Made by a program: the position numbers and the translations under genes. From a virus (Duplodnaviria; Heunggongvirae; Uroviricota; Caudoviricetes), in IMG/VR virus record IMGVR_UViG_3300006139_000005, positions 26,050 to 90,049 of that record: a DNA stretch of 64,000 bases. The stretch is one strand, 5' to 3'. The notes beneath the pieces were generated by a model. That model saw nothing but the letters and a program-made list of their open reading frames with translations. It searched no databases and was not told the DNA's origin. Shown one piece after another: positions 31,292 to 46,832 of this stretch. Position 1 is the stretch's first letter, and every line of letters begins with the position of its first letter.

Positions 31292-31362
31292 AGTGGCAGG
31301 AGCCACTTTAAGGTTAGTATAGTGACGAACAAAATCAATGTATTCAAATGGGGGGGTAAGAG

Positions 31363-31530
31363 TTGCCGGTATTCATTTTCTTGGTCTTTGCGTTTGCGGC
31401 TGTGCTGTGGGTGCTGCTATCTTTCGCATTCAAACCGCTCGGCAAGTTTGTTGGACGGCTAATCAAGGATGCAAAGGACGCAATGGACGAGGAAGATCCA
31501 AGCGATGAAGACACAGCAAATAAACATTGA
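31363..31530 (+). CDS. small membrane protein (TTG start)
   Basis: G7 tract as SD; LPVFIFLVFAFAAVLWVLLSFAF helix then acidic tail; directly upstream of the SPFH gene. Confidence 0.25.
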   Translation: MPVFIFLVFAFAAVLWVLLSFAFKPLGKFVGRLIKDAKDAMDEEDPSDEDTANKH

Positions 31531-32899: not shown

Positions 32900-32989
32900 G
32901 GAGTGGTAAGTCTAATGGTAAGACAGCGGTTTGCTAAACCGTCAGTAGCCCGAAAGGGTGTGTGGGTTCGAGTCCCACCCACTCCGCCA
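32900..32989 (+). tRNA. tRNA-Ser (anticodon GCU), CCA encoded
   Basis: acceptor GGAGTGG/CCACTCC, anticodon loop TTGCTAA, long variable arm, T-arm GTGGGTTCGAGTCCCAC. Confidence 0.8.
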
Positions 32990-33524: not shown

Positions 33525-33638
33525 GCGGAGATAGCTCAGTCGGTAGAGCGATGGTATAAAATGTGGAACATTTCGTTCTCACTAACAGCAAGGTTAAATG
33601 GAGGCTATGTGTCGTAGGTTCGAGTCCTACTCTCCGCA
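33525..33638 (+). tRNA. tRNA-like gene with about 45-nt insert in the anticodon loop (isotype not assignable)
   Basis: acceptor GCGGAGA/TCTCCGC, D-arm GCTCAGTCGGTAGAGC, T-arm GTAGGTTCGAGTCCTAC; insert ATAAAATGTGGAACATTTCGTTCTCACTAACAGCAAGGTTAAA; no CCA. Confidence 0.5.
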
Positions 33639-33851: not shown

Positions 33852-33966
33852 GTCAGGGTAGCTCAGTGGATAGAGCACGTATCAATGCGTATCTTATGAA
33901 ACGCGCACAGCAATGTTTTAAGGAATTTTAATCCCGTGGTCGTGGGTTCGAGTCCCACCCCTGGCA
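33852..33966 (+). tRNA. tRNA-like gene with long insert between D-arm and T-arm
   Basis: acceptor GTCAGGG/CCCTGGC (one G-U), D-arm GCTCAGTGGATAGAGC, T-arm GTGGGTTCGAGTCCCAC; insert contains CACAGCAATG; anticodon stem unresolved. Confidence 0.4.
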
Positions 33967-33971
33967 TCTAT

Positions 33972-34089
33972 GCGGTAGTGGTGAAGTGGTTAAACACAGC
34001 GGTCAATAAAATGTGAAATGTTATAGTTTCACTAACAGCAAGGTAAAAAGCCAAACCGCCAATCGTAGGTTCAAATCCTACCTGCCGTA
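33972..34089 (+). tRNA. tRNA-like gene with about 44-nt insert in the anticodon loop
   Basis: acceptor GCGGTAG/CTGCCGT, anticodon stem GCGGT/ACCGC, T-arm GTAGGTTCAAATCCTAC; insert ATAAAATGTGAAATGTTATAGTTTCACTAACAGCAAGGTAAAA homologous to that in 33525-33638. Confidence 0.5.
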
Positions 34090-35872: not shown

Positions 35873-35891
35873 ACAGAGAGGAGTGCAATTC

Positions 35892-37010
35892 GTGATTTAC
35901 TTAGACCACGCAGCAACGACACCTATGTTTCCAGAGGTTCTGGAGGCTATGCTTCCCTGGTTCCAACCAGATCATGTTGGCAACGCAAGCAGTATCCACA
36001 CGCAAGGAGTAAACGCTTTTCGAGCCATTGAAGATGCTCGTGAAAAGGTTGCCAAAATGATTAACGCCGATGTCTCTGAAATTTTCTTTACGTCAGGCGG
36101 TACAGAATCTAATAACACATTCGCCAGCCATATCCTTGGCGAGAGGGTCATCACAACTCCCTTGGAGCATCATTCCGTTACGCATCCGCTTGAGAGATGG
36201 GCACATGAGGTGTCCTATGTAAAGAATTTGCCCGATGGTAGCGTGGATTTGGAAGATTTGAGCCGCCTGTTAAATCTCTGTTGTCACAAAGCGGTTTCTG
36301 TAATGTGGATCAACAATGAGATTGGTACAATCAATCCGGTTGAGGAAATTGCAGAGCTTTGTAAAAAGCACAGTATACTCCTTCATGTGGACGCTGTGCA
36401 GGCGGCAGGCCATATACCTATCGACGTGAAGAAGTGCGGAGTGGATTTCCTCTCCATGTCCGGGCACAAGTTTGGCGCACCGTTTGGTGTCGGAGTGTTT
36501 TATGTGCGTAGTGGAGTCCAGAAAGAATCTCTGATTAGCGGAGGAGGTCAGGAGCACGGTATAAGAGCCGGCACCTATAATGTGCCTGGTATCGTGGGGC
36601 TTGGTAAGGCCGCTGAAATCATCACAAGTCGGCTCCCCAGACAAATCGAAAAGTGGAACACGCAGGAATATGTTTTGCTGAAAGAACTGGACAAGGTGAT
36701 GCCAGGAGAATACAAGCAAAACGCCGCTGCAAAAAGGACACACAACATTATCAGTCTGACCATTCCCAGTGTAAATAGCGAGGCTCTGTTGCTTTTGCTG
36801 GATCAGAAAGAAATTTATCTTTCTGCTGGTTCCGCTTGCAGTGCATCGGATGCAAGTTTGTCTCATGTCCTGAAAGGAATTGGGTTATCAGATGAAGATG
36901 CTGCATCAACCGTTCGTATTTCGTTGGGATATGAAAACACGGCGGACGAAATGGTGGAAACGGCCCAGGCCATTGCAGAGGTGGCACACAAGCTAAAGGC
37001 TATGTATTGA
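35892..37010 (+). CDS. cysteine desulfurase (NifS/IscS-like class V aminotransferase)
   Basis: LDHAATTP start; PLP-lysine motif SMSGHKFGAPFG; SAGSACS active-site Cys loop; GTG start with GAGGAG RBS. Confidence 0.8.
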   Translation: MIYLDHAATTPMFPEVLEAMLPWFQPDHVGNASSIHTQGVNAFRAIEDAREKVAKMINADVSEIFFTSGGTESNNTFASHILGERVITTPLEHHSVTHPLERWAHEVSYVKNLPDGSVDLEDLSRLLNLCCHKAVSVMWINNEIGTINPVEEIAELCKKHSILLHVDAVQAAGHIPIDVKKCGVDFLSMSGHKFGAPFGVGVFYVRSGVQKESLISGGGQEHGIRAGTYNVPGIVGLGKAAEIITSRLPRQIEKWNTQEYVLLKELDKVMPGEYKQNAAAKRTHNIISLTIPSVNSEALLLLLDQKEIYLSAGSACSASDASLSHVLKGIGLSDEDAASTVRISLGYENTADEMVETAQAIAEVAHKLKAMY

Positions 37011-37071: not shown

Positions 37072-38483
37072 ATGTACTGTGCGTATGTTACAAGAATTAA
37101 AAATCTGCGCAAGCACACCAACGCTGATCGGCTGATGTGTGGTGAGTGTTTCGGGAACACGGTAATCGTGGATCTTGGCACCGACCCCAACCAGCTTGGC
37201 GTTTACTTTCCGGTAGACGGAAAACTTGGTGTCGAGTTTGCACAAAAGAATGACCTGTTGCGGCGAAAGGATGAGAACGGAGATCCTGCCGGTGGATATC
37301 TTGATCCTGAGAAACGAAACATCAAAGCCCTGAAACTTCGTGGAGAAAAGAGTGACGGTTTGTTTCTTCCTATTAGCTGTCTGGATGGCTTTACAGACAC
37401 TACACAACTCAAAGAGGGCGACACAATCACAATGCTGAATGGTGTCACAATTTGCGAGAAGTACATTCCAAAGGCCAAACGAGCAGCTGGTGGTGGTCGT
37501 GGCGGGAGCCGTGTCCGCAAGAAGTCTGATCCAATCTCTCCTCTGTTCTTGAAGCACGCAGATACAGAGCAGCTTGCCTACAATTTGTCTGCGTTCCATA
37601 ACGGCGATCTGGTTGAGATTACGCTGAAGATGCACGGCACCAGCCAGCGCACCGGCTATCTTCCCATCCTCAAAGGCTACCAATATAAAAACGGTTTGGA
37701 AAAGCGGCTGTTTGAGAGCGAGAAAACTCCTGATTGGCTCCGCGCCAGAATCAAGAGAACGCCTATCTATGACTGGGGATATGTTACTGGTACGAGGCGG
37801 GTTGTTCTTGACGGTTACGACGGTGGCTTTTATGGAAGCAATTCTTTCCGTGAGCAACACGCAAAGGTCTTTGAAGGGAAGCTCCGCAATGGTGAGGAGG
37901 TCTACTACGAGGTGGTTGGTTTCACCGACGATGGCACACCTATCATGTCTCCTGGAAGCAACGCCAAGATTGGTGATAAGGAGTTTACCAATATGGCTGT
38001 GATCCAACCGGAAAGAAAACAGTTATGGATGAGAGCGGAGTGGCCTCTATCCCTGTGCCGAAGTCCGATCTCTATGTCTACCGCATGACTATGACCAACG
38101 AAGATGGTGATGTGGTGGAGTATTCGCCTGACTTCATGCGTTATCGCTGTGAGCAGATGGGCGTCAAGTGTGTACCTCTCTTCTGCCGCACAATCATTCC
38201 CGATCTTTTCCAACTGCCTGATAATGTGGGTTCTCCCCAGGCGGTGGATGCTGGCGAATATGTAAAGAAGCTGGCTGAGGATTTCTACGATGGCCCTGAC
38301 CCCGTAGGCAAAACCCATGTGCGTGAAGGTGTTGTTTGCCGCATTGTCAATCGCCCAAAGTTTGCTGCTTATAAGCACAAAAATTTCTCTTTCAAGGCTC
38401 TTGAGGGATTGATTAAGGATACTGCTGCTGCACCTGATATGGAAGAGGCACAGGAAGAGGTTGTGGAGGCAACCGATGGATAA
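37072..38483 (+). CDS. ATP-dependent RNA ligase (Rnl2/Rnl5-like, N-terminal OB-like domain), interrupted by a -1 frameshift near 38016
   Basis: nucleotidyltransferase motif I LKMHGTS (KxHG); downstream EGVVCR/YKHKN motifs lie in the overlapping frame 38025-38483. Confidence 0.6.
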
Positions 38484-40383: not shown

Positions 40384-40812
40384 ATGAAAGACAATCACAT
40401 CAGTCCGTGGAGTGTTAGGGTGCAGCCTGTAAACGCCGATCTGCTTCGCTTGTTGGGTTCGTATACCCCCCCCAATAAGGTAAAGGTCGGACTTGATCAA
40501 AACAGCTTCACCGCTGGATGGAACGCCGCTGTTCGCTATATGCGGGAGCATCCTGCCTTGCCGGGTATTCATCGTGTGATTTTCAACGGCCCTGCCACTA
40601 TCGTTTACTGGGACGATGGCTCCAAGACGGTGGTGAAGTGCCAGCCTGGAGACACCTTCAGTGCTGAGACTGGTCTGATGGCTGCTATGCTCAAGCGTTT
40701 TATGGGGAATGACAATACCTACAACAAGGTACTTAACCATTGGCTTGGAACGGTGACTCCTCAGCTTCCCGCTCCTGACGATTCGCCCCAACTGACAGAC
40801 GGTACGGAGTGA
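40384..40812 (+). CDS. hypothetical protein
   Basis: AAGGAGG RBS; 142 aa. Confidence 0.5.
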   Translation: MKDNHISPWSVRVQPVNADLLRLLGSYTPPNKVKVGLDQNSFTAGWNAAVRYMREHPALPGIHRVIFNGPATIVYWDDGSKTVVKCQPGDTFSAETGLMAAMLKRFMGNDNTYNKVLNHWLGTVTPQLPAPDDSPQLTDGTE

Positions 40813-40894: not shown

Positions 40895-41852
40895 ATGGGG
40901 GAGGTGGACGTTTTGCATAGCAAAGAACAACTGGAAGAGATGCAGCGTCTGCCTCTCTCTCGCAAAATCCAGATTACTACGGCTCGCATTATCGAATGGT
41001 ATCAGCACTACGACGGCCAAGTGTATGTTGCGTTTTCAGGTGGCAAGGATTCAACCGTACTTCTTGACATCGTGAGGCGTATTTACCCAGATGTTCCGGC
41101 TGTATTCTCCGACACTGGGCTTGAGTTCCCAGAGGTTAGAAAGTTCGCTATGAGCCGTGATAATGTGACTGTTGTACGGCCAGAGATGAATTTCCGCAAG
41201 GTTATTGAGGTGTATGGATACCCTCTGATATCAAAGCGAACAGCAGAGACGGTTGAATACGGAAAGAAGCCTGGATCGTATCGTTGGAAGGAGATCCACG
41301 GGGAGGTTATGATGTCGAATGGTAAACCATCGAAATTTAACTGTCAAAAGTGGTGCTACCTATTAGATGCGCCTTTCAAGGTGTCTTCCAAGTGCTGCGA
41401 TATTATGAAGAAGCAGCCAATGAAAAAATACGTTAAAGAGACTGGCCGTTTTCCTATCACTGCAACTATGGCAGTAGAAAGCATATCCAGAGAAGTCGTA
41501 TGGATGCGACAAGGATGCAATGCCTTTAACAATAAATCGCCCATCTCTCAGCCTATGTCGTTCTGGACAGAGAATGATGTACTCGAATATCTTTATACTT
41601 ATCAAATCCCATATGCTTCTGTCTACGGTGAAATCGTTAAAGCTGATGGGGGGGGGGTGGACGACAACAGGAGAGCATCGTACTGGCTGTGTCTTTTGTG
41701 CCTTTGGCGCTCATTTGGAAAAGTCTCCGAACCGCTTCCAGCGTCTAAAAATCACACATCCAAAACTCTGGAACTACTGCATGAAGCCGTGGGAAGAACA
41801 CGGCCTTGGTATGCGAAAAGTGCTTGAGTATATCGGAGTTCAAGTAGAATAA
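40895..41852 (+). CDS. PP-loop ATP pyrophosphatase (TtcA/DndC/PAPS-reductase-like); C-terminal CxxC segment lies in another frame after a G10 tract
   Basis: YVAFSGGKDSTVLLDIV PP-loop; frame switch at 41648-41657 to ...GCVFCAFGAHLEK... (track ORF 41520-41852). Confidence 0.65.
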
Positions 41853-41868
41853 TTTTATGAGGTGCATT

Positions 41869-42288
41869 ATGAAGAAAATTATGGCTGTTATTATTGCAGC
41901 AACCATGATGCTTGTCTTGCTTGTTGGTTGTGCAGAAAGCAATGAGTATCTGGAGCAGCAGTGTAATGAATTGCGAACAGAAATCGCTGTGCTCAAAGAA
42001 CAAAAGTCCGCTATTGAGGCTGAAATTGTAAGCGCAAAAGAAGAGAATGGAACGGCAACCTATGTAGTTACATTCCGCATCAAACAATCACATTTCACAC
42101 TCGATATCGGTGAACACCTTAAAGACTCAATGAACGAAATTACTTTTGAGGTTCCTGTCGATAAGGCGTATTATGATAGCGTTTCTGTTGGCGACACGAT
42201 CAATGATGATTTTCGTATGGGATCACTGATTATGCACGGTTCATTTGGGAATTGGAAAGTCACCATTGAAAAGAAAGAAGTGCAATAA
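41869..42288 (+). CDS. lipoprotein
   Basis: MKKIMAVIIAATMMLVLLVGCAES signal peptide with lipobox; 139 aa. Confidence 0.6.
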   Translation: MKKIMAVIIAATMMLVLLVGCAESNEYLEQQCNELRTEIAVLKEQKSAIEAEIVSAKEENGTATYVVTFRIKQSHFTLDIGEHLKDSMNEITFEVPVDKAYYDSVSVGDTINDDFRMGSLIMHGSFGNWKVTIEKKEVQ

Positions 42289-42323
42289 ATAACACTTAAA
42301 TTTAGAAAAGTGAGGTTTACAAC

Positions 42324-42608
42324 ATGAGAAATAACGACGGATTTACACTGCTTGGAATCGGCAGTGCGATTATTGGACTGATTGGGCTTCTGGTATTCAG
42401 TCCAGTCATTACATTTGGGTTTGCATGGTTTGGTGGATGGATTTTGAAGCTGTGTGTCGGAAATGCCATTGCCAGTGGTATGAACCTGATGTTCGACACA
42501 GCACGTTTCACACCAGACTTCATTCCGTTGGCCTGTGCAACACTGGCTACTATCGGAAAATATTTTAAGAGTTCACAAACCAACAGCAATAAAAACGAGA
42601 GGAGATAA
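42324..42608 (+). CDS. small integral membrane protein
   Basis: GAGGT RBS; 2-3 hydrophobic helices. Confidence 0.5.
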   Translation: MRNNDGFTLLGIGSAIIGLIGLLVFSPVITFGFAWFGGWILKLCVGNAIASGMNLMFDTARFTPDFIPLACATLATIGKYFKSSQTNSNKNERR

Positions 42609-42729
42609 TACCAATCCTGGTAAACCAGGTTCATGTAAGATTGATAAGTGCATGGTAAAGCCGCCTGTTGCAGCGTGGAGGCCGAAAAGCTGAAGCATGG
42701 GAGGATTAGGCGGTTGACCTCAGCCAGTG

Positions 42730-43557
42730 ATGGTTGTGGTCGGTATGATTCACATTGTTTGTTTTTCTGGCGGTCATTCATCTGCAATCGCCGCCGTGGA
42801 AGTGGTTAGACGGTACGGGTCTGAGAATACGGTATTACTTAACCATAATCTGTGTCCACGTACTGAAGACCAAGATATTAAGCGTTTCAAAAATGAGGTT
42901 TCGGATTATTTGGGTGTTCCAATTACTTATGCCAATATGCCTGGATGGGAGCGCAAGGATCAATTTGATGTGTGCGTGGATATCAAAGCATTCAAGACTG
43001 GCGCACAGTCAACGGCTCTTTGCACAAATAGGTTGAAAACTGAGCCTTTTCACAAATGGCTTGCGGAGAACTACCCACCCCTACTGCCAGCGGTCAGAGA
43101 TGATATATCTCTGGTTTATGGGTTCGACGCCAATGAGCAGCGCCGTATTCAGCGTAGAGTCGGTATTATGGCTGCTATGGGATACCAGACTGAGTATCCA
43201 TTGACCTGGGAGGCAAGGACGATTCACGACATCGAAGAGATTGGGATTAAGCGTCCAAGAACCTATGACATATTCAACCATGCAAATTGTATTGGTTGCC
43301 TAAAGGCCGGCAAACAACATTGGTTCATTGTTTACTGTCTCTATCCCGAAATTTGGGAAAAGGCGAAGCTGGCAGAACAAGCAATCGGGTATAGTATCCT
43401 AAAACAAGGCTTTCTCTCAGATTTCGAGGTGGAATTTGCTAAGCTCAAAAAAAAGGCGCTACCTCCTACTGAGAAAACCAAACCACAAAAATTTTGGGCA
43501 GTAGCACGAAAGCTCATCAAAGATGATGACAACCTTCCGTGTGAGTGTTCATTCTAA
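42730..43557 (+). CDS. PP-loop superfamily ATPase (QueC/PAPS-reductase-like)
   Basis: IHIVCFSGGHSSAIAAV N-terminal PP-loop variant; 275 aa; weak RBS. Confidence 0.5.
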   Translation: MVVVGMIHIVCFSGGHSSAIAAVEVVRRYGSENTVLLNHNLCPRTEDQDIKRFKNEVSDYLGVPITYANMPGWERKDQFDVCVDIKAFKTGAQSTALCTNRLKTEPFHKWLAENYPPLLPAVRDDISLVYGFDANEQRRIQRRVGIMAAMGYQTEYPLTWEARTIHDIEEIGIKRPRTYDIFNHANCIGCLKAGKQHWFIVYCLYPEIWEKAKLAEQAIGYSILKQGFLSDFEVEFAKLKKKALPPTEKTKPQKFWAVARKLIKDDDNLPCECSF

Positions 43558-43575
43558 ATTCGATGGAGGTTTACA

Positions 43576-44127
43576 ATGGCTAAATTCAACATTACCGTTG
43601 ACCTGGATTGGCTGGACGAGGAAGGAAACATTGACCAGCAGTTGAAGGACGAGATTCTTTCCAGCATTACCGAAAAAGTCTGCGGCAACATCACCAAATC
43701 TCTTGAAGAGAAAGCGGAGAAAATTCTTAACGATAAAATGCGGGACGTTGAAAACGAGGTCAACAAAAGGCTCAATTTGATGATGCAACAGTTTTTCAAC
43801 ACTCCAAAGGATATCACTGATCGCTGGGGTGAAGTAACGAGGGCACAGGTCACTGTCAAACAGTTGCTTTCTGAGGCTTGCGACAACTACCTGACGCAGC
43901 CTGTCACGCGGGAAGGGAAGCCAGACAATGGCTACAACCCCGCTTTCAAAAGCCGGGTTGATTACATCGTCCACAAGAGCATCGACAGTGACATGGAGTG
44001 GCAAATCAAGCGTGCAGTTGAAGATGTCACCAAGAACCTCAAGCAAAAGATTTCCACTGAAATTTCTACGCAGTTGGGAGAAAAATTGGCGGGGATCATC
44101 GGGATTGACAAAATCATCTCAAAGTGA
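43576..44127 (+). CDS. hypothetical protein
   Basis: GGAGGT RBS; 183 aa. Confidence 0.5.
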   Translation: MAKFNITVDLDWLDEEGNIDQQLKDEILSSITEKVCGNITKSLEEKAEKILNDKMRDVENEVNKRLNLMMQQFFNTPKDITDRWGEVTRAQVTVKQLLSEACDNYLTQPVTREGKPDNGYNPAFKSRVDYIVHKSIDSDMEWQIKRAVEDVTKNLKQKISTEISTQLGEKLAGIIGIDKIISK

Positions 44128-44141
44128 TTGGAGATGTAGGT

Positions 44142-44408
44142 ATGGACGAATTAAAGTATTCCAAAGAGGATTACGAAACCTGTGATATTTACGGCAATGA
44201 TGACACAGAAATCAGTTGCTACAAATGCAGACTCGTAAAATGTAGGAAACCACACACTTGCGGGAACTGCGGTGACGAGATTCCAAAGGGAGGGTACGCC
44301 CTATGCGAATCTGGATTCATGGACGGTGGAGCGGTTTCTTGTTATACCTGCGTACCATGTATGGATTCGTGGATTTCGGAAAGCAGAGGCAAAGAAGATA
44401 GTGAATGA
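44142..44408 (+). CDS. small zinc-ribbon protein
   Basis: CYKC...CGNCG...CYTCVPC; 88 aa. Confidence 0.5.
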   Translation: MDELKYSKEDYETCDIYGNDDTEISCYKCRLVKCRKPHTCGNCGDEIPKGGYALCESGFMDGGAVSCYTCVPCMDSWISESRGKEDSE

Positions 44409-44440
44409 AACTATTCTTTCATTAACAACGAATAAAATCA

Positions 44441-44470
44441 TTGACAGGCAAGGGAAAATACGCTATAATA
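44441..44470 (+). promoter_or_regulatory. consensus sigma-A promoter TTGACA-N18-TATAAT preceded by the AACGAATAAAATCA motif
   Basis: perfect hexamers. Confidence 0.55.
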
Positions 44471-44485
44471 AGGAGGTAGTAAACC

Positions 44486-46090
44486 TTGGATTTCAAAACT
44501 GCCCTTTTCTGCGAGTTTGATAAGTACGCCGCAGAAAGTTACTGTGCTGTGCATGGTATTGATCCGGCACTCAATATTGGCGATATTACTAAGGCCGATG
44601 AGAAGATGGTGCCAGACTTTAATACCATGTTTGGCGGAAGCCCTTGTCAGGACTTCAGTGTAGCGGGCAAACAGGGGGGGGCTGCATGGACTTGTAAGCA
44701 TTGCGGTCACACCTATAACCCATTAGAAGCTCACTATACTAAGCGCGACCATTGTCCCAGTTGCGGATCAACAGATATTAAGAAAACTCGTTCGTCACTT
44801 CTGGTTGAATGGTTACGTTTTCTCAGAGAGAAGAGGCCGCGCTTTGCTATTTACGAAAATGTGAAAAACATCGTCGGCTCACGCTTTCGTTCTACATTCG
44901 ATCTTTTTGTTAAGGAACTGGAAGACTACGGTTACAATGTCTACTGGCAGGTTCTGAATGCAAAAAACTATGGGATTCCGCAGAATCGTGAGCGTGTCTA
45001 TTGTGTCATTATCAGAAAAGATCTGGATAACGGAAAGTTCAAATTCCCTACTCCTATCCCACTGAAGCGTGCTCTGGTAGATATGCTGGATGAGAAAGTT
45101 GACGAGCATTACTACTTATCGGACGATAAGGTAGCAGCCATGATCGCCCCCCCCAGCCAGACAAATCAGTAATACCATCCGTACCGGTGGAAGAGGTTCC
45201 ACAGACCGCCACTGTTGGGACTTGCTCACTTGCCGGTGCAAAACTAAGTAAGAAAGGAACCCAGTTTAATGGGTACTGTGATACAGCTTTAACATTACTG
45301 GCCCGTGACTACAAAGGCTTCGGAAATCAACAAATGACAGGAGTAGTTGAAAAACATGAGAATCGTATGTGAGCAGCGATGTGACGAGGGTGTTCGTTTC
45401 TTCAAAGATGGCGTTTGTGGCACTATTCGCACTATTGATGGGGGGGGGGACAAGAGAGTGATTGAATCTGGAATCAAAGAGCCAGCGTTTCGAGTGCGGA
45501 AACTAACGCAGAAAGAATGCTGGAGGCTCATGGGCTTTACCGATGAAGATTTTTACAGCGCTCAGGCTGCTATGAATGAGAACATATATGGCGGTAATGA
45601 TCGTAGTGGCTCCCAGCTTTACAAGCAAGCCGGCAACTCTATTGTGGTGGATGTGCTTTGTGCTATTCTGGGAGAACTGTACCAGGCTATGCCGTATCTT
45701 TTCGAGGATATTGTGGTTGGCTCTTTCTTTTCTGGCATTGGAGCTTTTGAAAAGGCACTATCCACATTTGATAATGCTCCAATTAGCGGCGAACAAAATC
45801 ATAGCATCGAAGACAATGATCTTCGTCAGATTGGATATATCAACGACTACAACGGAGATGCCAACCGAATATATGATAGTGAAACTGTTGCCCGTGTTCT
45901 GAAAGCTGAAGCTGGCGGTGGTGGAGCAAAGACGGGATGGTATAAGGTCAAGGGCGTAATTGATCCACAGGGACGGCTCAACAAGAAATGTACTCTTAGG
46001 CAAGACTGCCCGACACTTAGAGCACAGCATCATGGCAATCCGCCGGAGGTTGTTTATGGAGAAAGTAAGGATCAGACAGGCGACCCGTAA
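44486..46090 (+). CDS. DNA (cytosine-5)-methyltransferase, interrupted (frames 44486-45172 / 45187-45372 / 45347-46090) and carrying a zinc-ribbon insertion
   Basis: motif I FCEFDKYA, IV GGSPCQDFSVAG, VI ENV, VIII QNRERV; TRD TLLARDYKG; IX/X RKLTQKECWRLMGFTDEDF...GNSIVV; frame changes at C8 (45147-45154) and A5 (45353 region); G8 and G10 tracts inside. Confidence 0.75.
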
Positions 46091-46238
46091 AGGTTTTATC
46101 GAGTGCGCTGTGTGTGGGGGGGGGTAGCGGATTTATCCTACCCGTCAAGTAAAACTCGAAGAGGCCGTGTTCAAGAAGATGGTTGGATTTGTCAAACTAT
46201 TACAGCAACAGAAACCGGCATTTGTCGGATAGAGAGGA

Positions 46239-46541
46239 ATGATACGATTGAGCATCACACTGAAAAATCGCCGTGAAGCATACGAGAATGTGAAACCGAA
46301 ACGGGATAGCCGCAAGGCTCTCATTTTGAACATACTTGAAAACGGCGATCCTGGTGGTATGACAGCAGAAGAGGTTGCACAACAGCTCCTTAAAGATGGG
46401 AAAATCCCGTACATTGATCCCAACTTCACTCGCCCACGTCTGACAGAGTTGAAAGAAGACGGCAAGATTGAGGTTGTCGGTAAACGGCGGAGTTTTATCA
46501 CAACTCGAAATACTGCGGTCTGGAAGGTGGTCAAACATTGA
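46239..46541 (+). CDS. hypothetical, possibly winged-helix protein
   Basis: 100 aa; poor RBS. Confidence 0.4.
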   Translation: MIRLSITLKNRREAYENVKPKRDSRKALILNILENGDPGGMTAEEVAQQLLKDGKIPYIDPNFTRPRLTELKEDGKIEVVGKRRSFITTRNTAVWKVVKH

Positions 46542-46795
46542 CACCAGATAGATATACTTGCTTGGACTGTGGAAGAACCTTTGAGGAACCGAAACAATGG
46601 GAGGAGCGGCATGGCCTGGATACACCACCATATGAAAAATTTAGTGGCTGTCCATTCTGTGGTGGTGCTTATGCAGAAACAATCATTTGTGACGGCTGCG
46701 GAGAAGCAATAACCGGCGATTACGTCAGAATTGAATCCAGCGGAAAGCATTTCTGTGATTCTTGCTTTATGCTGAAATCATTCGGTGACGATTAA
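46538..46795 (+). CDS. zinc-ribbon protein (TTG start)
   Basis: AAGGTGG RBS; CLDCG...CPFCGG...CDGCG...CDSC. Confidence 0.5.
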   Translation: MTPDRYTCLDCGRTFEEPKQWEERHGLDTPPYEKFSGCPFCGGAYAETIICDGCGEAITGDYVRIESSGKHFCDSCFMLKSFGDD

Positions 46796-46832
46796 AATTT
46801 CGCATAATAACAAACAAAATCAAGGAGGAAAC

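Follow-up and report, generated by a model that had tools for sequence, protein, structure and literature searches.

Conserved G/C homopolymer tracts as probable contingency loci in counter-defence genes of a temperate Oscillospiraceae phage

The 64,000-nucleotide stretch of DNA analysed here (the window) comes from a temperate phage of gut Oscillospiraceae. Its long G/C runs are, in our judgement, likely to be selected hypermutable contingency loci that toggle counter-defence genes; slippage is inferred, without read-level data. Run length was almost the only difference between otherwise identical genomes, and the tracts therefore look like real slipped-strand ON/OFF switches. Conserved tracts, tract-only differences at zero substitutions and intact frames in OFF alleles lend support to the slipped-strand reading put forward in a preliminary description of this DNA.

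Inventory, conservation and length variation of the tracts

A run scan of the window found nine G/C runs 7 or more bases long, all on the plus strand. Six of the nine are packed into 5.66 kb (binomial P ~3e-5 had the span been fixed beforehand; here it was chosen post hoc): C8 at 40466-40473 in a 142-aa ORF, G10 at 41648-41657 in a PAPS-reductase-like gene, G8 at 44674-44681 in the alpha chain of a C5-methyltransferase, C8 at 45147-45154 at the junction of the alpha core and its target recognition segment TRD-A, G10 at 45440-45449 in TRD-B of the beta chain, and G9 at 46116-46124 inside a small ORF, ORF3. The others are G11 at 3140-3150, non-coding, in the interval between integrase and early genes; G9 at 3737-3745, in the 5' leader of the gene at 3818-4630; and G7 at 31350-31356, in a minimal uORF 5' of a 55-aa membrane-protein ORF. 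The scan recovered the runs at 41648, 44674, 45147, 45440, 3140, 3737 and 31350 as they had been listed in the preliminary description, whose inventory of five plus three tracts overlooked the C8 at 40466 and gave the G9 at 46116 as a G8 at 46117.

Window GC was 46.5%, rather than the ~48 percent first estimated, and the claim that such tracts are unexpected by chance was borne out. Eight G/C runs reached 8 bases or more, against 1.15 expected with independent bases, 0.92 and 0.38 under first- and third-order Markov models, and 0.07 by geometric extrapolation from lengths 4-5. The run-length histogram was bimodal, with 150 runs of length 4, 21 of length 5, one each of lengths 6 and 7, three of length 8, two each of lengths 9 and 10, and one of length 11, while A/T runs decayed smoothly. 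The tracts use the rarest glycine and proline codons (GGG, 14% of Gly; CCC, 18% of Pro), and none of the 35 Gly-Gly pairs in tract-free ORFs was encoded as GGG-GGN.

Tracts at matching codons were seen in over 50 viral contigs, in 7 loci from bacterial genomes or MAGs and in another 80 contigs from metagenomes. Uninterrupted tracts were present at the same positions in ~130 related contigs, isolate genomes of Oscillospiraceae among them, and the comparison of lengths among relatives that had been proposed as a check showed variation. At least three of the seven bacterial loci with tracts are from cultured isolates, one of them a complete genome (Dysosmobacter segnis, Hominicoprocola fusiformis and the complete genome AP018533.1). 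Five of the window tracts were tested. They recurred at identical codons in 15-53 of the first 80 viral loci (flank identity 67-96%) and in 22-64 of the 80 loci from an independent metagenome set; they remained unbroken where flanks had diverged to 67-80% identity. Pooled G/C runs of lengths 5, 6, 7, 8, 9 and 10 numbered 216, 4, 27, 234, 122 and 16 in the first set and 173, 10, 41, 205, 145 and 21 in the second, a bimodal distribution unlike the monotonic decay of A/T runs in both. The combination of ON and OFF states differed in nearly every genome. Length 8 was the most frequent state at almost every tract, ON or OFF alike, a predominance that mutational equilibrium or transcriptional slippage would explain no worse than adaptive switching does.

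Hypermutability of the tracts was supported by comparison of near-identical genomes. Contigs with zero substitutions over ~7-21 kb differed at one to four tracts and nowhere else: L036, L040 and L043 had no mismatches over 20.9 kb, yet showed one or two tract changes; L195 matched the window without mismatch over 7018 nt, the sole change being G8 at the 46116 tract; and between L195 and both L205 and L206, again with no mismatches, all four methylase tracts had changed. L010 and L011 differed by 26 mismatches and five tract changes, with no other indels. No non-tract indels were found in the zero-mismatch pairs; the region compared includes an A8 run, at 43447, which is thus unchanged.

Genes and leaders that carry the tracts

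The PAPS-reductase-like (PP-loop) gene (40895..41852, +) matched Pfam PF01507 at 6e-18 once the tract was repaired. With G10, the assembled window is OFF and needs a change of -1: the N-terminal part runs to 41827 in the wrong frame, while the genuine C-terminal part (TTGEHRTGCVFCAFG...) extends to 41852. Frame reconstruction upheld the proposal that G9 would fuse the PP-loop domain to the Cys-rich C-terminus, and relatives with G9 encode a product of 316-318 aa. At 54 homologous sites the tract was in frame in 17 (14 G9, and 3 G8 after a base substitution) and out of frame in 37 (31 G8, 3 G9, 2 G10 and 1 G20). Near-identical relatives carried G8 (eight cases) or G10 (the window and L196), OFF in 10 of 10; the tract was missing in relatives at or below 60% identity. 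The neighbouring C8 at 40466, within the 142-aa ORF (40384-40812), is in frame and codes for T-P-P-N. No Pfam or PHROG match was obtained for this ORF, and no length variation has yet been seen at its tract, which was C8 in L023 and in 10 of 10 near-identical relatives.

Judged from its motifs, the C5-methyltransferase is made naturally as separate chains and is circularly permuted; that these chains assemble, and that alternative starts are translated, is inferred. Reading of the sequence placed a promoter-like element (TTGACA, 44441-44446; 17-bp spacer; TATAAT, 44464-44469; +) and a Shine-Dalgarno (SD) sequence, AAGGAGG (44470-44476, +), 5' of the methylase operon, and a repeated 16-mer (44428-44443) overlaps the promoter-like site. 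The alpha chain (44486..45372, +) matched PF00145 at 9e-48 and aligned to M.HhaI residues 17-208; it comprises motifs II-VIII, a zinc-ribbon insert and TRD-A. The G8 at 44674 lies where motif IV ends (GKQGG, corresponding to GKQKG of M.HhaI), and this tract serves as a master ON/OFF switch for the catalytic alpha chain, whose enzyme activity is inferred. Among 48 sites it was G8 (ON) in 28, G9 in 15 and G7 in 5, with G8 and G9 both found among zero-mismatch relatives. Since the 45147 tract is C8 in the window, alpha stops at 45172 after 228 aa, OFF for TRD-A. Lengths computed for C7-C11 gave 295 aa with C9, the ON length, and homologue clusters span 228-308 aa. C8 does, as first described, end the N-terminal half, and C9 does read on; the extension, however, takes in TRD-A only and then stops. 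Twenty of 46 sites were in frame, all of them C9, and 26 out of frame (lengths overall: C7 2, C8 19, C9 21, C10 3, C11 1); C8 and C9 both occurred among zero-mismatch relatives. An alpha-beta fusion was found in none of the 120 clusters listed for the multi-TRD clade; single-chain relatives also exist.

The beta chain (45356..46090, +), in which motifs IX-X matched PF00145, runs in the order TRD-B, motif IX, motif X, motif I (FSGIGAFEKAL), then TRD-like segments C and D; its homologues span 142-357 aa. Joining ...EKALSTF of beta to DFKTALFCEFDKYA of alpha gave a gapless alignment to M.HhaI 17-92. In the literature we found no description of the order II-VIII, TRD, IX, X, I. The G10 at 45440 falls within TRD-B, in its Gly loop (CGTIRTIDGGG, which aligns to ITLSAYGGG of M.HhaI); like the G8 at 44674 it is inside methylase coding sequence, as reported, and both are in frame in the window. 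The first set of relatives had G10 (ON) in 8 and G9 in 13, the second G8 in 10, G9 in 16 and G10 in 7, and G8, G9, G10 and G11 were all present among zero-mismatch relatives. A start codon for the part with motifs IX, X and I is available in every frame at this tract. Given that the catalytic chain and single recognition modules bear tracts of their own, specificity could vary, not only presence, and the tracts probably switch methylase specificities besides ON/OFF. The 46116 tract had been called intergenic but is coding, inside ORF3 (46056..46276, +; ATG at 46056, SD GGAGG at 46045-46049), a TRD-like peptide (TRD-E) with homologous segments inside Streptococcus phage C5 methylases. G9 cuts ORF3 to 23 aa, OFF in the assembled window, and G10 or G7 would restore the conserved 73 aa; 41 homologous sites had G8 in 18, G9 in 21 and G7 in 2.

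The non-coding tracts are less conserved. The G9 at 3737 lies ~20 nt 3' of a promoter-like TTGACA-17-TAAAAT and forms one stem arm; L110, the closest relative, has G8 here, and more distant ones have an interrupted G-rich stretch (GGGGGGTGGG or GAGGGGGACGGG). The G11 at 3140 sits in a G-rich non-coding region and is absent from L110; other relatives have G9, C8 or C9 elsewhere in the same integrase/early-gene region. The G7 at 31350 makes the minimal uORF ATG-GGG-GGG-TAA (31348-31359) and an SD-like stretch 6 nt 5' of the 55-aa ORF (TTG start, 31363-31530), and is G8 in L023 and L081. Tracts found only in relatives occur in an N6A methylase (C8, out of frame in 27 of 33), other TRDs (TRD-F: G8, OFF in 14 of 14 genomes) and RNA ligase; the RNA ligase of the window is broken by a 28-bp deletion, a non-homopolymer lesion.

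Reversibility or continued use of the switched genes was supported by the frames 3' of OFF tracts, whose length is preserved and whose dN/dS matches that of ON alleles. The ORF 3' of the PAPS-reductase tract spans 64 codons in 51 of 54 genomes, with dN/dS of 0.063 in OFF and 0.069 in ON genomes; the value was 0.028 among OFF alleles of the N6A methylase and 0.14-0.19 for ORF3.

Alternative explanations

Systematic homopolymer error was the alternative named in the preliminary description: the genes would really be intact and the frameshifts artefacts of sequencing or assembly. Short-read assemblies are least trustworthy in the lengths they give for G8-G11, several relatives are low-coverage contigs (cov 1.3-5 in contig names), and the RNA ligase deletion is a lesion outside any homopolymer. 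Miscalls, however, cannot create tracts at conserved codons in ~130 independent assemblies, isolate and complete genomes included, nor a bimodal length spectrum confined to G/C. They are also contradicted by the zero-mismatch pairs, in which only tracts varied and the A8 run did not, and by the frequency of both ON and OFF lengths at every site. We regard this explanation as barely tenable.

Somewhat more room remains for programmed recoding, unlikely as it also appears, in which RNA-polymerase slippage or ribosomal frameshifting supplies the in-frame product, 'OFF' is the normal state and length differences are largely neutral. It would fit the dominance of length 8 whatever the frame (out of frame at TRD-F in 14/14, N6A methylase in 27/33 and PAPS reductase in 31/54) and the strong purifying selection that persists on frames 3' of tracts. 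Recoding sites are, on the other hand, normally fixed in length, whereas here lengths 7-11 coexist per site among identical genomes and in-frame lengths are common; transcriptional slippage is also less favoured on G/C than on A/T runs, and separate start codons in all three TRD-B frames fit isoform switching at the DNA level. It is also conceivable, though very improbable, that the tracts are non-adaptive mutational hotspots, arising for example from a replication bias of the phage Pol III alpha, in dispensable genes where frameshifts are mere loss of function. The methylase cassette is indeed dispensable, being absent from the near-identical relatives L199-L201, the RNA ligase of the window is broken by deletion, and at several tracts most genomes are OFF. 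Against this, the tracts stay unbroken at fixed codons while surrounding synonymous sites have diverged by 20-30%, lengths 6-7, where a neutral random walk would accumulate, are depleted, frames 3' of tracts are conserved in OFF genomes, and the tracts cluster in one functional gene class instead of genome-wide.

Known systems and the proposed switch

Bacillus phages SPR, phi3T, rho11s and H2 encode multispecific C5 methylases with tandem TRDs between motifs VIII and IX, each TRD thought to confer one target. Those enzymes are single chains with canonical motif order and no repeats, unlike the present two to three ORFs with motif I after motif X and a tract in each module. M.AquI is split and M.BssHII circularly permuted. 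Together with the engineered circularly permuted M.MpeI and M.SssI (PMC5944983), they resemble the present enzyme in that C5 methylases tolerate a split in the variable region and circular permutation. The break here, between motifs I and II, and a chain that continues past motif I into further TRD-like segments set this enzyme apart.

Precedent exists in the hypermutable polyG tracts of phages of Campylobacter (Sorensen et al., Cell Rep 2021, cited in PMC12823448), where frequent length changes of long G runs in phage ORFs are reported to give ON/OFF subpopulations inside a single phage stock, as bet-hedging. Those tracts belong to receptor-binding and tail genes, in lytic phages whose host is itself polyG-switching, whereas the present ones, several per operon and including C runs, are in DNA-modification and RNA-repair genes of temperate Oscillospiraceae phages. 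In phage T2, a poly-A contingency locus in agt reversibly toggles DNA glucosylation by frameshifting, trading TgvAB sensitivity for McrA/BC sensitivity (Gomez, Barrick, Waters; bioRxiv 10.1101/2025.10.21.683753). The accessible part of that preprint screens repeats of at least 6, concerns A runs (one at agt bases 288-296) in an AT-rich genome and offers no evidence of positional conservation; the present runs are G/C tracts of 8-11 bases against a background that avoids them, conserved over a wide clade and in every methylase recognition module. Phasevarions, such as Type III mod genes and the phase-variable Campylobacter Type IIG methyltransferase cj0031 (PMC4889913), likewise have a simple-sequence repeat in a methylase ORF that switches methylation, but are chromosomal restriction-modification genes with a single on/off repeat, unlike this orphan phage-borne C5 methylase.

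In the contingency-locus model, slipped-strand mispairing during replication would add or remove one or two bases at rates well above those of ordinary mutation, and the resulting frame shift would make each tract an independent, reversible switch. The PAPS-reductase-like enzyme, its activity inferred, would be ON with G9 and OFF with the G10 of the window. G8 (ON) would gate the catalytic alpha chain, whose activity and DNA targets are likewise inferred; C8 (OFF) would decide whether alpha carries TRD-A, G10 (ON) whether beta carries TRD-B, and G9 (OFF) would gate an additional short TRD-like peptide. An N6-adenine methylase, other TRDs and RNA ligase would be gated by more such tracts in relatives, and the tracts at 3140, 3737 and 31350 may affect expression. 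A lysogen population or a burst would then be a mixture of genomes with different DNA-modification repertoires, in which some progeny may be protected from methylation-sensitive restriction while others escape methylation-dependent restriction, an inferred form of bet-hedging.

Distribution and conservation of the G/C tracts

In the window (64 kb, 46.5% GC), nine runs of G or C reach at least 7 bases, with lengths of 7–11, and six of the nine fall within 5.7 kb. Six lie inside ORFs: C8 at 40466, in frame in the gene for a 142-aa unknown protein; G10 at 41648–41657, in the first of two PAPS-reductase-like genes (the PAPS tract); and four in the separate chains (alpha, beta and ORF3) of a C5 methyltransferase, namely G8 at 44674 in alpha, C8 at 45147 at the junction of the alpha core and target-recognition domain (TRD) A, G10 at 45440 in TRD-B of beta, and G9 at 46116–46124 in ORF3. 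The remaining three, G11 at 3140, G9 at 3737 (leader) and G7 at 31350, are non-coding, in leader or intergenic DNA. The preliminary description had recorded these tracts as they stand, except that it overlooked C8 at 40466 and read the last tract as G8 at 46117. G/C runs of 4 to 11 bases numbered 150, 21, 1, 1, 3, 2, 2 and 1, respectively, unlike A/T runs, which decayed smoothly with length. Eight G/C runs of at least 8 bases were observed, compared with 1.15 expected from independent bases, 0.38 from a third-order Markov model and 0.07 by extrapolation of the decay. A Markov-5 null (4.3 expected runs) was set aside, as that model learns the tracts themselves.

When the region was compared with 50,697 phage records by blastn set for distant similarity, the only matches were short ones to phages of Ruminococcus and Faecalibacterium, and an annotated close relative is therefore lacking. 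Relatives were collected with a repaired PAPS-reductase query, which gave a first set of 80 viral contigs and 29 bacterial genome loci, and with a beta query, which gave 80 more metagenome contigs (set 2); contig look-ups return one contig per sample. Seven of the 29 bacterial loci were close relatives carrying tracts (Dysosmobacter segnis BX15, Hominicoprocola fusiformis CLA-AA-H269, the complete genome of Clostridiales bacterium CCNA10, 'Clostridiaceae bacterium strain 9', a mouse Oscillospiraceae isolate and two MAGs). The window tracts recurred at identical codons in about 54 close relatives with flanks 67–96% identical, and remained uninterrupted even at 67–80% flank identity. Leaving out relatives without a tract at the site, the PAPS tract was G8 in 30, G9 in 14, and G10 and G20 in one each; the 44674 tract was G8 in 21, G9 in 15 and G7 in 5; that at 45147 was C8 in 18, C9 in 16, C10 in 3 and C7 in 2; that at 45440 was G9 in 11 and G10 in 4; and that at 46116 was G9 in 16, G8 in 13 and G7 in 2. 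Pooled G/C runs of 5, 6, 7, 8, 9 and 10 bases numbered 216, 4, 27, 234, 122 and 16 in set 1 and 173, 10, 41, 205, 145 and 21 in the independent set 2, which gave the same tract picture; lengths were bimodal in both sets, and A/T runs decayed monotonically. Relatives of no more than 60% protein identity had ordinary codons, without a tract, at the PAPS site. Gly and Pro are least often encoded by GGG and CCC, and not one of the 35 Gly-Gly pairs in ORFs without a tract was written as GGG-GGN. The tracts being uninterrupted, bimodal in length and built of rare codons, it is therefore the nucleotide tract itself that is maintained.

Clustering of 407 tracts yielded about 17 recurrent families, for which in-frame (ON) and out-of-frame (OFF) lengths were tabulated. 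Families not present in the window were those of an N6A methylase, further TRDs and an RNA ligase, at whose site the window has GCTGGTGGTGGTCGTGGCGGG versus G8 in relatives. The PAPS tract of one related contig (L026, position 10748) was G20, an extreme expansion relative to the 8–10 seen elsewhere. Among more distant, higher-GC lineages (contigs L063–L069, L089, L096 and L102), C8–C11 or G8–G10 runs lay close to the PAPS-reductase gene but outside it, so the use of tracts may reach past this clade.

The three non-coding tracts were less conserved. G11 at 3140 was missing from the closest relative; G9 at 3737, which forms part of a stem in a leader 3′ of a promoter-like site, was shortened to G8 in the closest relative, and in other relatives the run was interrupted; and G7 at 31350, which forms a minimal uORF and SD-like element upstream of the gene for a 55-aa membrane protein, was G8 in two relatives. 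Between the integrase and early genes, positions 2970–3620 are G-rich and CT-rich repetitive non-coding DNA (GGCGGGGCGGGG and ATGGCAGGCGGGGCC motifs), and the G/C tracts of relatives sit at differing places within this region. The 16-mer ACGAATAAAATCAWTG occurs five times on the + strand (3679, 3805, 31325, 44428 and 55597) versus 0.1 expected. Every copy either coincides with a promoter-like or start region or lies immediately 5′ of one, and three copies adjoin loci with tracts; the 16-mer is probably a regulatory element specific to the phage.

Tract-length polymorphism and OFF alleles

Comparison of tract lengths among related genomes, which the preliminary description had proposed as a check, revealed polymorphism: pairs with 0 mismatches over 7–21 kb differed at 1–4 tracts and had no other indels, so that an A8 run at 43447, inside the compared region, was unchanged. 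Contigs L036, L040 and L043, from three metagenomes, were identical over 20.9 kb bar one or two tract lengths, and L010 and L011 differed by 26 substitutions and five tract changes, with no other indel. The Logan contig L195 matched the window throughout 7,018 nt, the sole difference being G8 in place of G9 at 46116, and other contigs with 0 substitutions relative to L195 differed from it at between two and all four methylase tracts. For 44674, 45147, 45440 and 46116, respectively, the window has G8, C8, G10 and G9; L198 has G8, C9, G8 and G8; L203 and L204 have G8, C9, G9 and G8; L205 and L206 have G9, C9, G11 and G9; L202 has G8, C8, G8 and G8; and L197 has G9, C8, G8 and G8. Across the wider clade, almost every genome carried its own ON/OFF combination. 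Assembly error cannot account for the conservation of the tracts in isolate genomes, for length variation confined to G/C or for the bimodal length spectrum. Generally poor assembly was also set aside: apart from the tracts and one 28-bp deletion, the window agrees at every base with near-identical contigs.

The frame 3′ of the PAPS tract was 64 codons in 51 of 54 genomes, with a median dN/dS of 0.063 in OFF and 0.069 in ON genomes. For the N6A methylase, whose tract was OFF in 28 of 33 genomes, dN/dS was 0.028; OFF and ON values were 0.19 and 0.14 for TRD-E, and 0.33 and 0.28 for TRD-A. Evidently, frames beyond OFF tracts are used often enough to stay under selection, and OFF alleles are not pseudogenes. 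Such conserved frames, which are indirect evidence only, fit reversible switching or, less simply, recoding. The tracts lack the single conserved out-of-frame length of a programmed frameshift or slippage site, as lengths 7–11 coexist at most sites, TRD-F excepted. Room is left for a contribution from transcriptional slippage: length 8 was the mode whether ON or OFF, the TRD-F tract was G8 (OFF) in 14 of 14 genomes, and the PAPS tract was OFF in all ten near-identical genomes. Because of these same three observations, the data suggest that mutational equilibrium, not frame selection, sets the majority tract state in lysogen populations. That selection is able to hold a state is shown by the RNA-ligase tract, G8 (ON) in 28 of 29 genomes. 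Overall, the tracts fit selected SSR contingency loci that phase-vary by slipped-strand mispairing, with hypermutable tract length, polymorphism in close relatives, frame toggling and tract maintenance all observed; reversible switching within a clonal population is inferred without reads, and any effect of tract state on the methylome or on restriction escape is likewise an inference.

Architecture of the methyltransferase and its tracts

The methylase operon is preceded by a strong promoter-like site (TTGACA, 17 bp, TATAAT, then AAGGAGG). C5 motifs I (FxGxG), IV (PC), VI (ENV), VIII (QxRxR), IX and X (GN) were sought, and all were found in the methyltransferase (PF00145), as FSGIGAF, SPCQDFS, YENVKN, QNRERVY, RKLTQKECWRLMGF and QAGNSIVV. 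The motifs do not follow the canonical I-to-X order on one polypeptide; the order is II–VIII and TRD–IX–X–I across two ORFs. The alpha N-terminus (LDFKTALFCEFDKYA) is motif II, with motif I absent there, and motif I (VGSFFSGIGAFEKAL) sits downstream of motif X in the next ORF. An artificial join of the C-terminal motif-I piece to the N-terminus of the first ORF aligned without gaps to M.HhaI residues 17–92, and the motifs run II–VIII, TRD, IX, X, I in two single-chain homologues, P0159 (394 aa) and P0220 (391 aa); the methylase family is therefore circularly permuted, with the break between motifs I and II. When complete, alpha (44486–45372) carries motifs II–VIII with a zinc-ribbon insert, and TRD-A; beta (45356–46090) carries TRD-B, which aligns to the M.HhaI TRD, then IX, X and I and two TRD-like segments; and ORF3, when complete (46056–46276), carries a further such segment, TRD-E, with homologues inside Streptococcus phage C5 methylases. 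Among the best 120 homologue clusters (alpha 175–394 aa, beta 142–357 aa), no alpha–beta fusion was found except in single-TRD single-chain relatives such as P0159 and P0220. The methylase is more than a broken gene: the split is native, and alpha and beta are unfused in the multi-TRD clusters compared.

TRD-like modules A–E were recognisable in the window, and F and G in relatives. Multispecific phage C5 methyltransferases of the SPR/phi3T type carry several tandem TRDs, each with a separate target; the window enzyme may be of this type, with TRD-like modules of unassigned target, of which C–E are placed after motif I, where no recognition domain is expected. These segments (45760–46276) lack following IX–X motifs. 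They are conserved and bear their own tracts in relatives, with TRD-E under purifying selection (dN/dS 0.14–0.19). A TRD-like segment after motif I had no tblastn match in the phage collection, and no description of the motif order II–VIII, TRD, IX, X, I was found in the literature. The permuted and split architecture is a separate observation, and possibly a new one. In the near-identical contigs L199, L200 and L201, the whole methylase cassette (window 44400–46800) is absent, and the site holds thymidylate synthase, dNMP kinase and NrdD genes or a direct junction to SSB; the operon therefore behaves as an exchangeable accessory module.

Each methylase tract has a distinct coding consequence. 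Where motif IV ends, G8 at 44674 encodes the GG in GKQGG and gates the entire alpha chain. Truncation by C8 at 45147 was borne out: C8 or C11 ends alpha at 228–229 aa, C9 reads into TRD-A to give 295 aa, and with C7 or C10 the tail is a different one. G10 at 45440 encodes the Gly loop of TRD-B, aligned with ...TLSAYGGG of M.HhaI. The G10 or G7 frame of beta can start at TTG 45347 or ATG 45356 and includes TRD-B; the G8 or G11 frame can start at GTG 45369, overlapping the alpha stop codon, and has a different N-terminus; and the G9 frame can start at a GTG directly 3′ of the tract, which together with AAGAGA resembles a ribosome-binding site. Gene callers choose exactly these ORFs in relatives with matching tract lengths, and we infer that this tract switches beta isoforms and does not abolish beta. 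The 46116 tract, previously placed in intergenic DNA, is a G9 that interrupts coding ORF3. It is possible, although we put the odds somewhat against it, that the operon and the tract-gated PAPS-reductase-like, N6A-methylase and RNA-ligase genes form a combinatorial specificity randomiser with many counter-defence states per lineage. The catalytic chain and every recognition module would each be under their own hypermutable tract, and because start codons exist in all three frames, a slip would exchange isoforms instead of killing the methylase.

Genomic setting and relation to known switches

The tract-bearing region is a counter-defence and nucleic-acid-modification module. It comprises tRNA and tRNA-like genes, a DUF2828/DUF7788 protein, a NifS/DndA-like cysteine desulfurase, an RNA ligase, a nucleotidyltransferase, a polynucleotide-kinase-like protein, the 142-aa unknown protein, two PAPS-reductase-like PP-loop proteins, the C5 methyltransferase operon, and Erf, SSB and exonuclease recombination genes. 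The element is temperate, as it has an integrase (1872–2693). As first proposed, G10 at 41648 cuts the first PAPS-reductase-like gene from its Cys-rich C-terminus (TTGEHRTGCVFCAFG...), and G9 restores a 318-aa protein. The desulfurase (35883–37010) is grouped with the two PP-loop proteins (40895–41852 and 42727–43557), which hints at sulfur-based nucleic-acid modification, phosphorothioation-like or thiolation, although function is not established. The RNA ligase (37072–38483) lacks 28 bp (ACAGTACGGCAAAACAACTTTCTTCAGT) at 37991/37992 that are present in near-identical relatives; this gap, not homopolymer-related, splits the 479-aa protein into ORFs of 338 and 152 aa and represents a genuine deletion that inactivates the gene or else an error of assembly. 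In addition to a tRNA-Ser (32900–32989), three tRNA-like genes (33525–33638, 33852–33966 and 33972–34089) scored above the Rfam tRNA threshold but drew no ARAGORN call; 48–55 nt replace the anticodon loop. They adjoin the DUF2828/DUF7788 protein and RNA-repair genes, an arrangement that by analogy is reminiscent of Ro/Y-RNA-like or intron-containing tRNA modules. Stop-codon recoding was rejected for the many short ORFs at 9–17 kb, since TAG, TGA or TAA readthrough yields no long genes.

Methylases switched by homopolymers are a classic theme in a few bacterial pathogens. Among phages, to our knowledge, homopolymer switching has been shown only in Campylobacter phage tail genes and in T-even phages (2025 preprint). 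Bacterial homopolymer-switched methylases are well known (e.g. PMC4889913). Hypermutable polyG tracts in Campylobacter phage receptor-binding genes have been described (Sorensen 2021, cited in PMC12823448). According to the 2025 preprint, a run of A in T2 agt switches DNA glucosylation, exchanging TgvAB sensitivity for McrA/BC sensitivity (bioRxiv 10.1101/2025.10.21.683753), the same logic as proposed here. Literature searches turned up no account of G/C tracts from phages of Oscillospiraceae, nor of such tracts within single TRDs of phage methylases. The label phasevarion, for a switching methylase that alters transcription of a regulon, would apply to the window methylase only if the prophage enzyme is active in the lysogen. 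The idea of a switch is directly testable, as read sets exist and lysogens are cultured (Dysosmobacter and Hominicoprocola).

Switching logic of this kind would be present across a large group of related temperate phages that infect abundant gut anaerobes, with tracts that are clearly under selection and target counter-defence genes, individual methylase recognition modules included. In gut metagenomes, many phage methylase genes labelled 'frameshifted' or 'fragmented' would be switches, not pseudogenes or errors, and gut phage methylation patterns may be heterogeneous by design, which is relevant to annotation pipelines and host-range prediction. If the operon does act as a specificity randomiser, it would represent a widespread, undescribed bet-hedging strategy of human-gut Oscillospiraceae phages.
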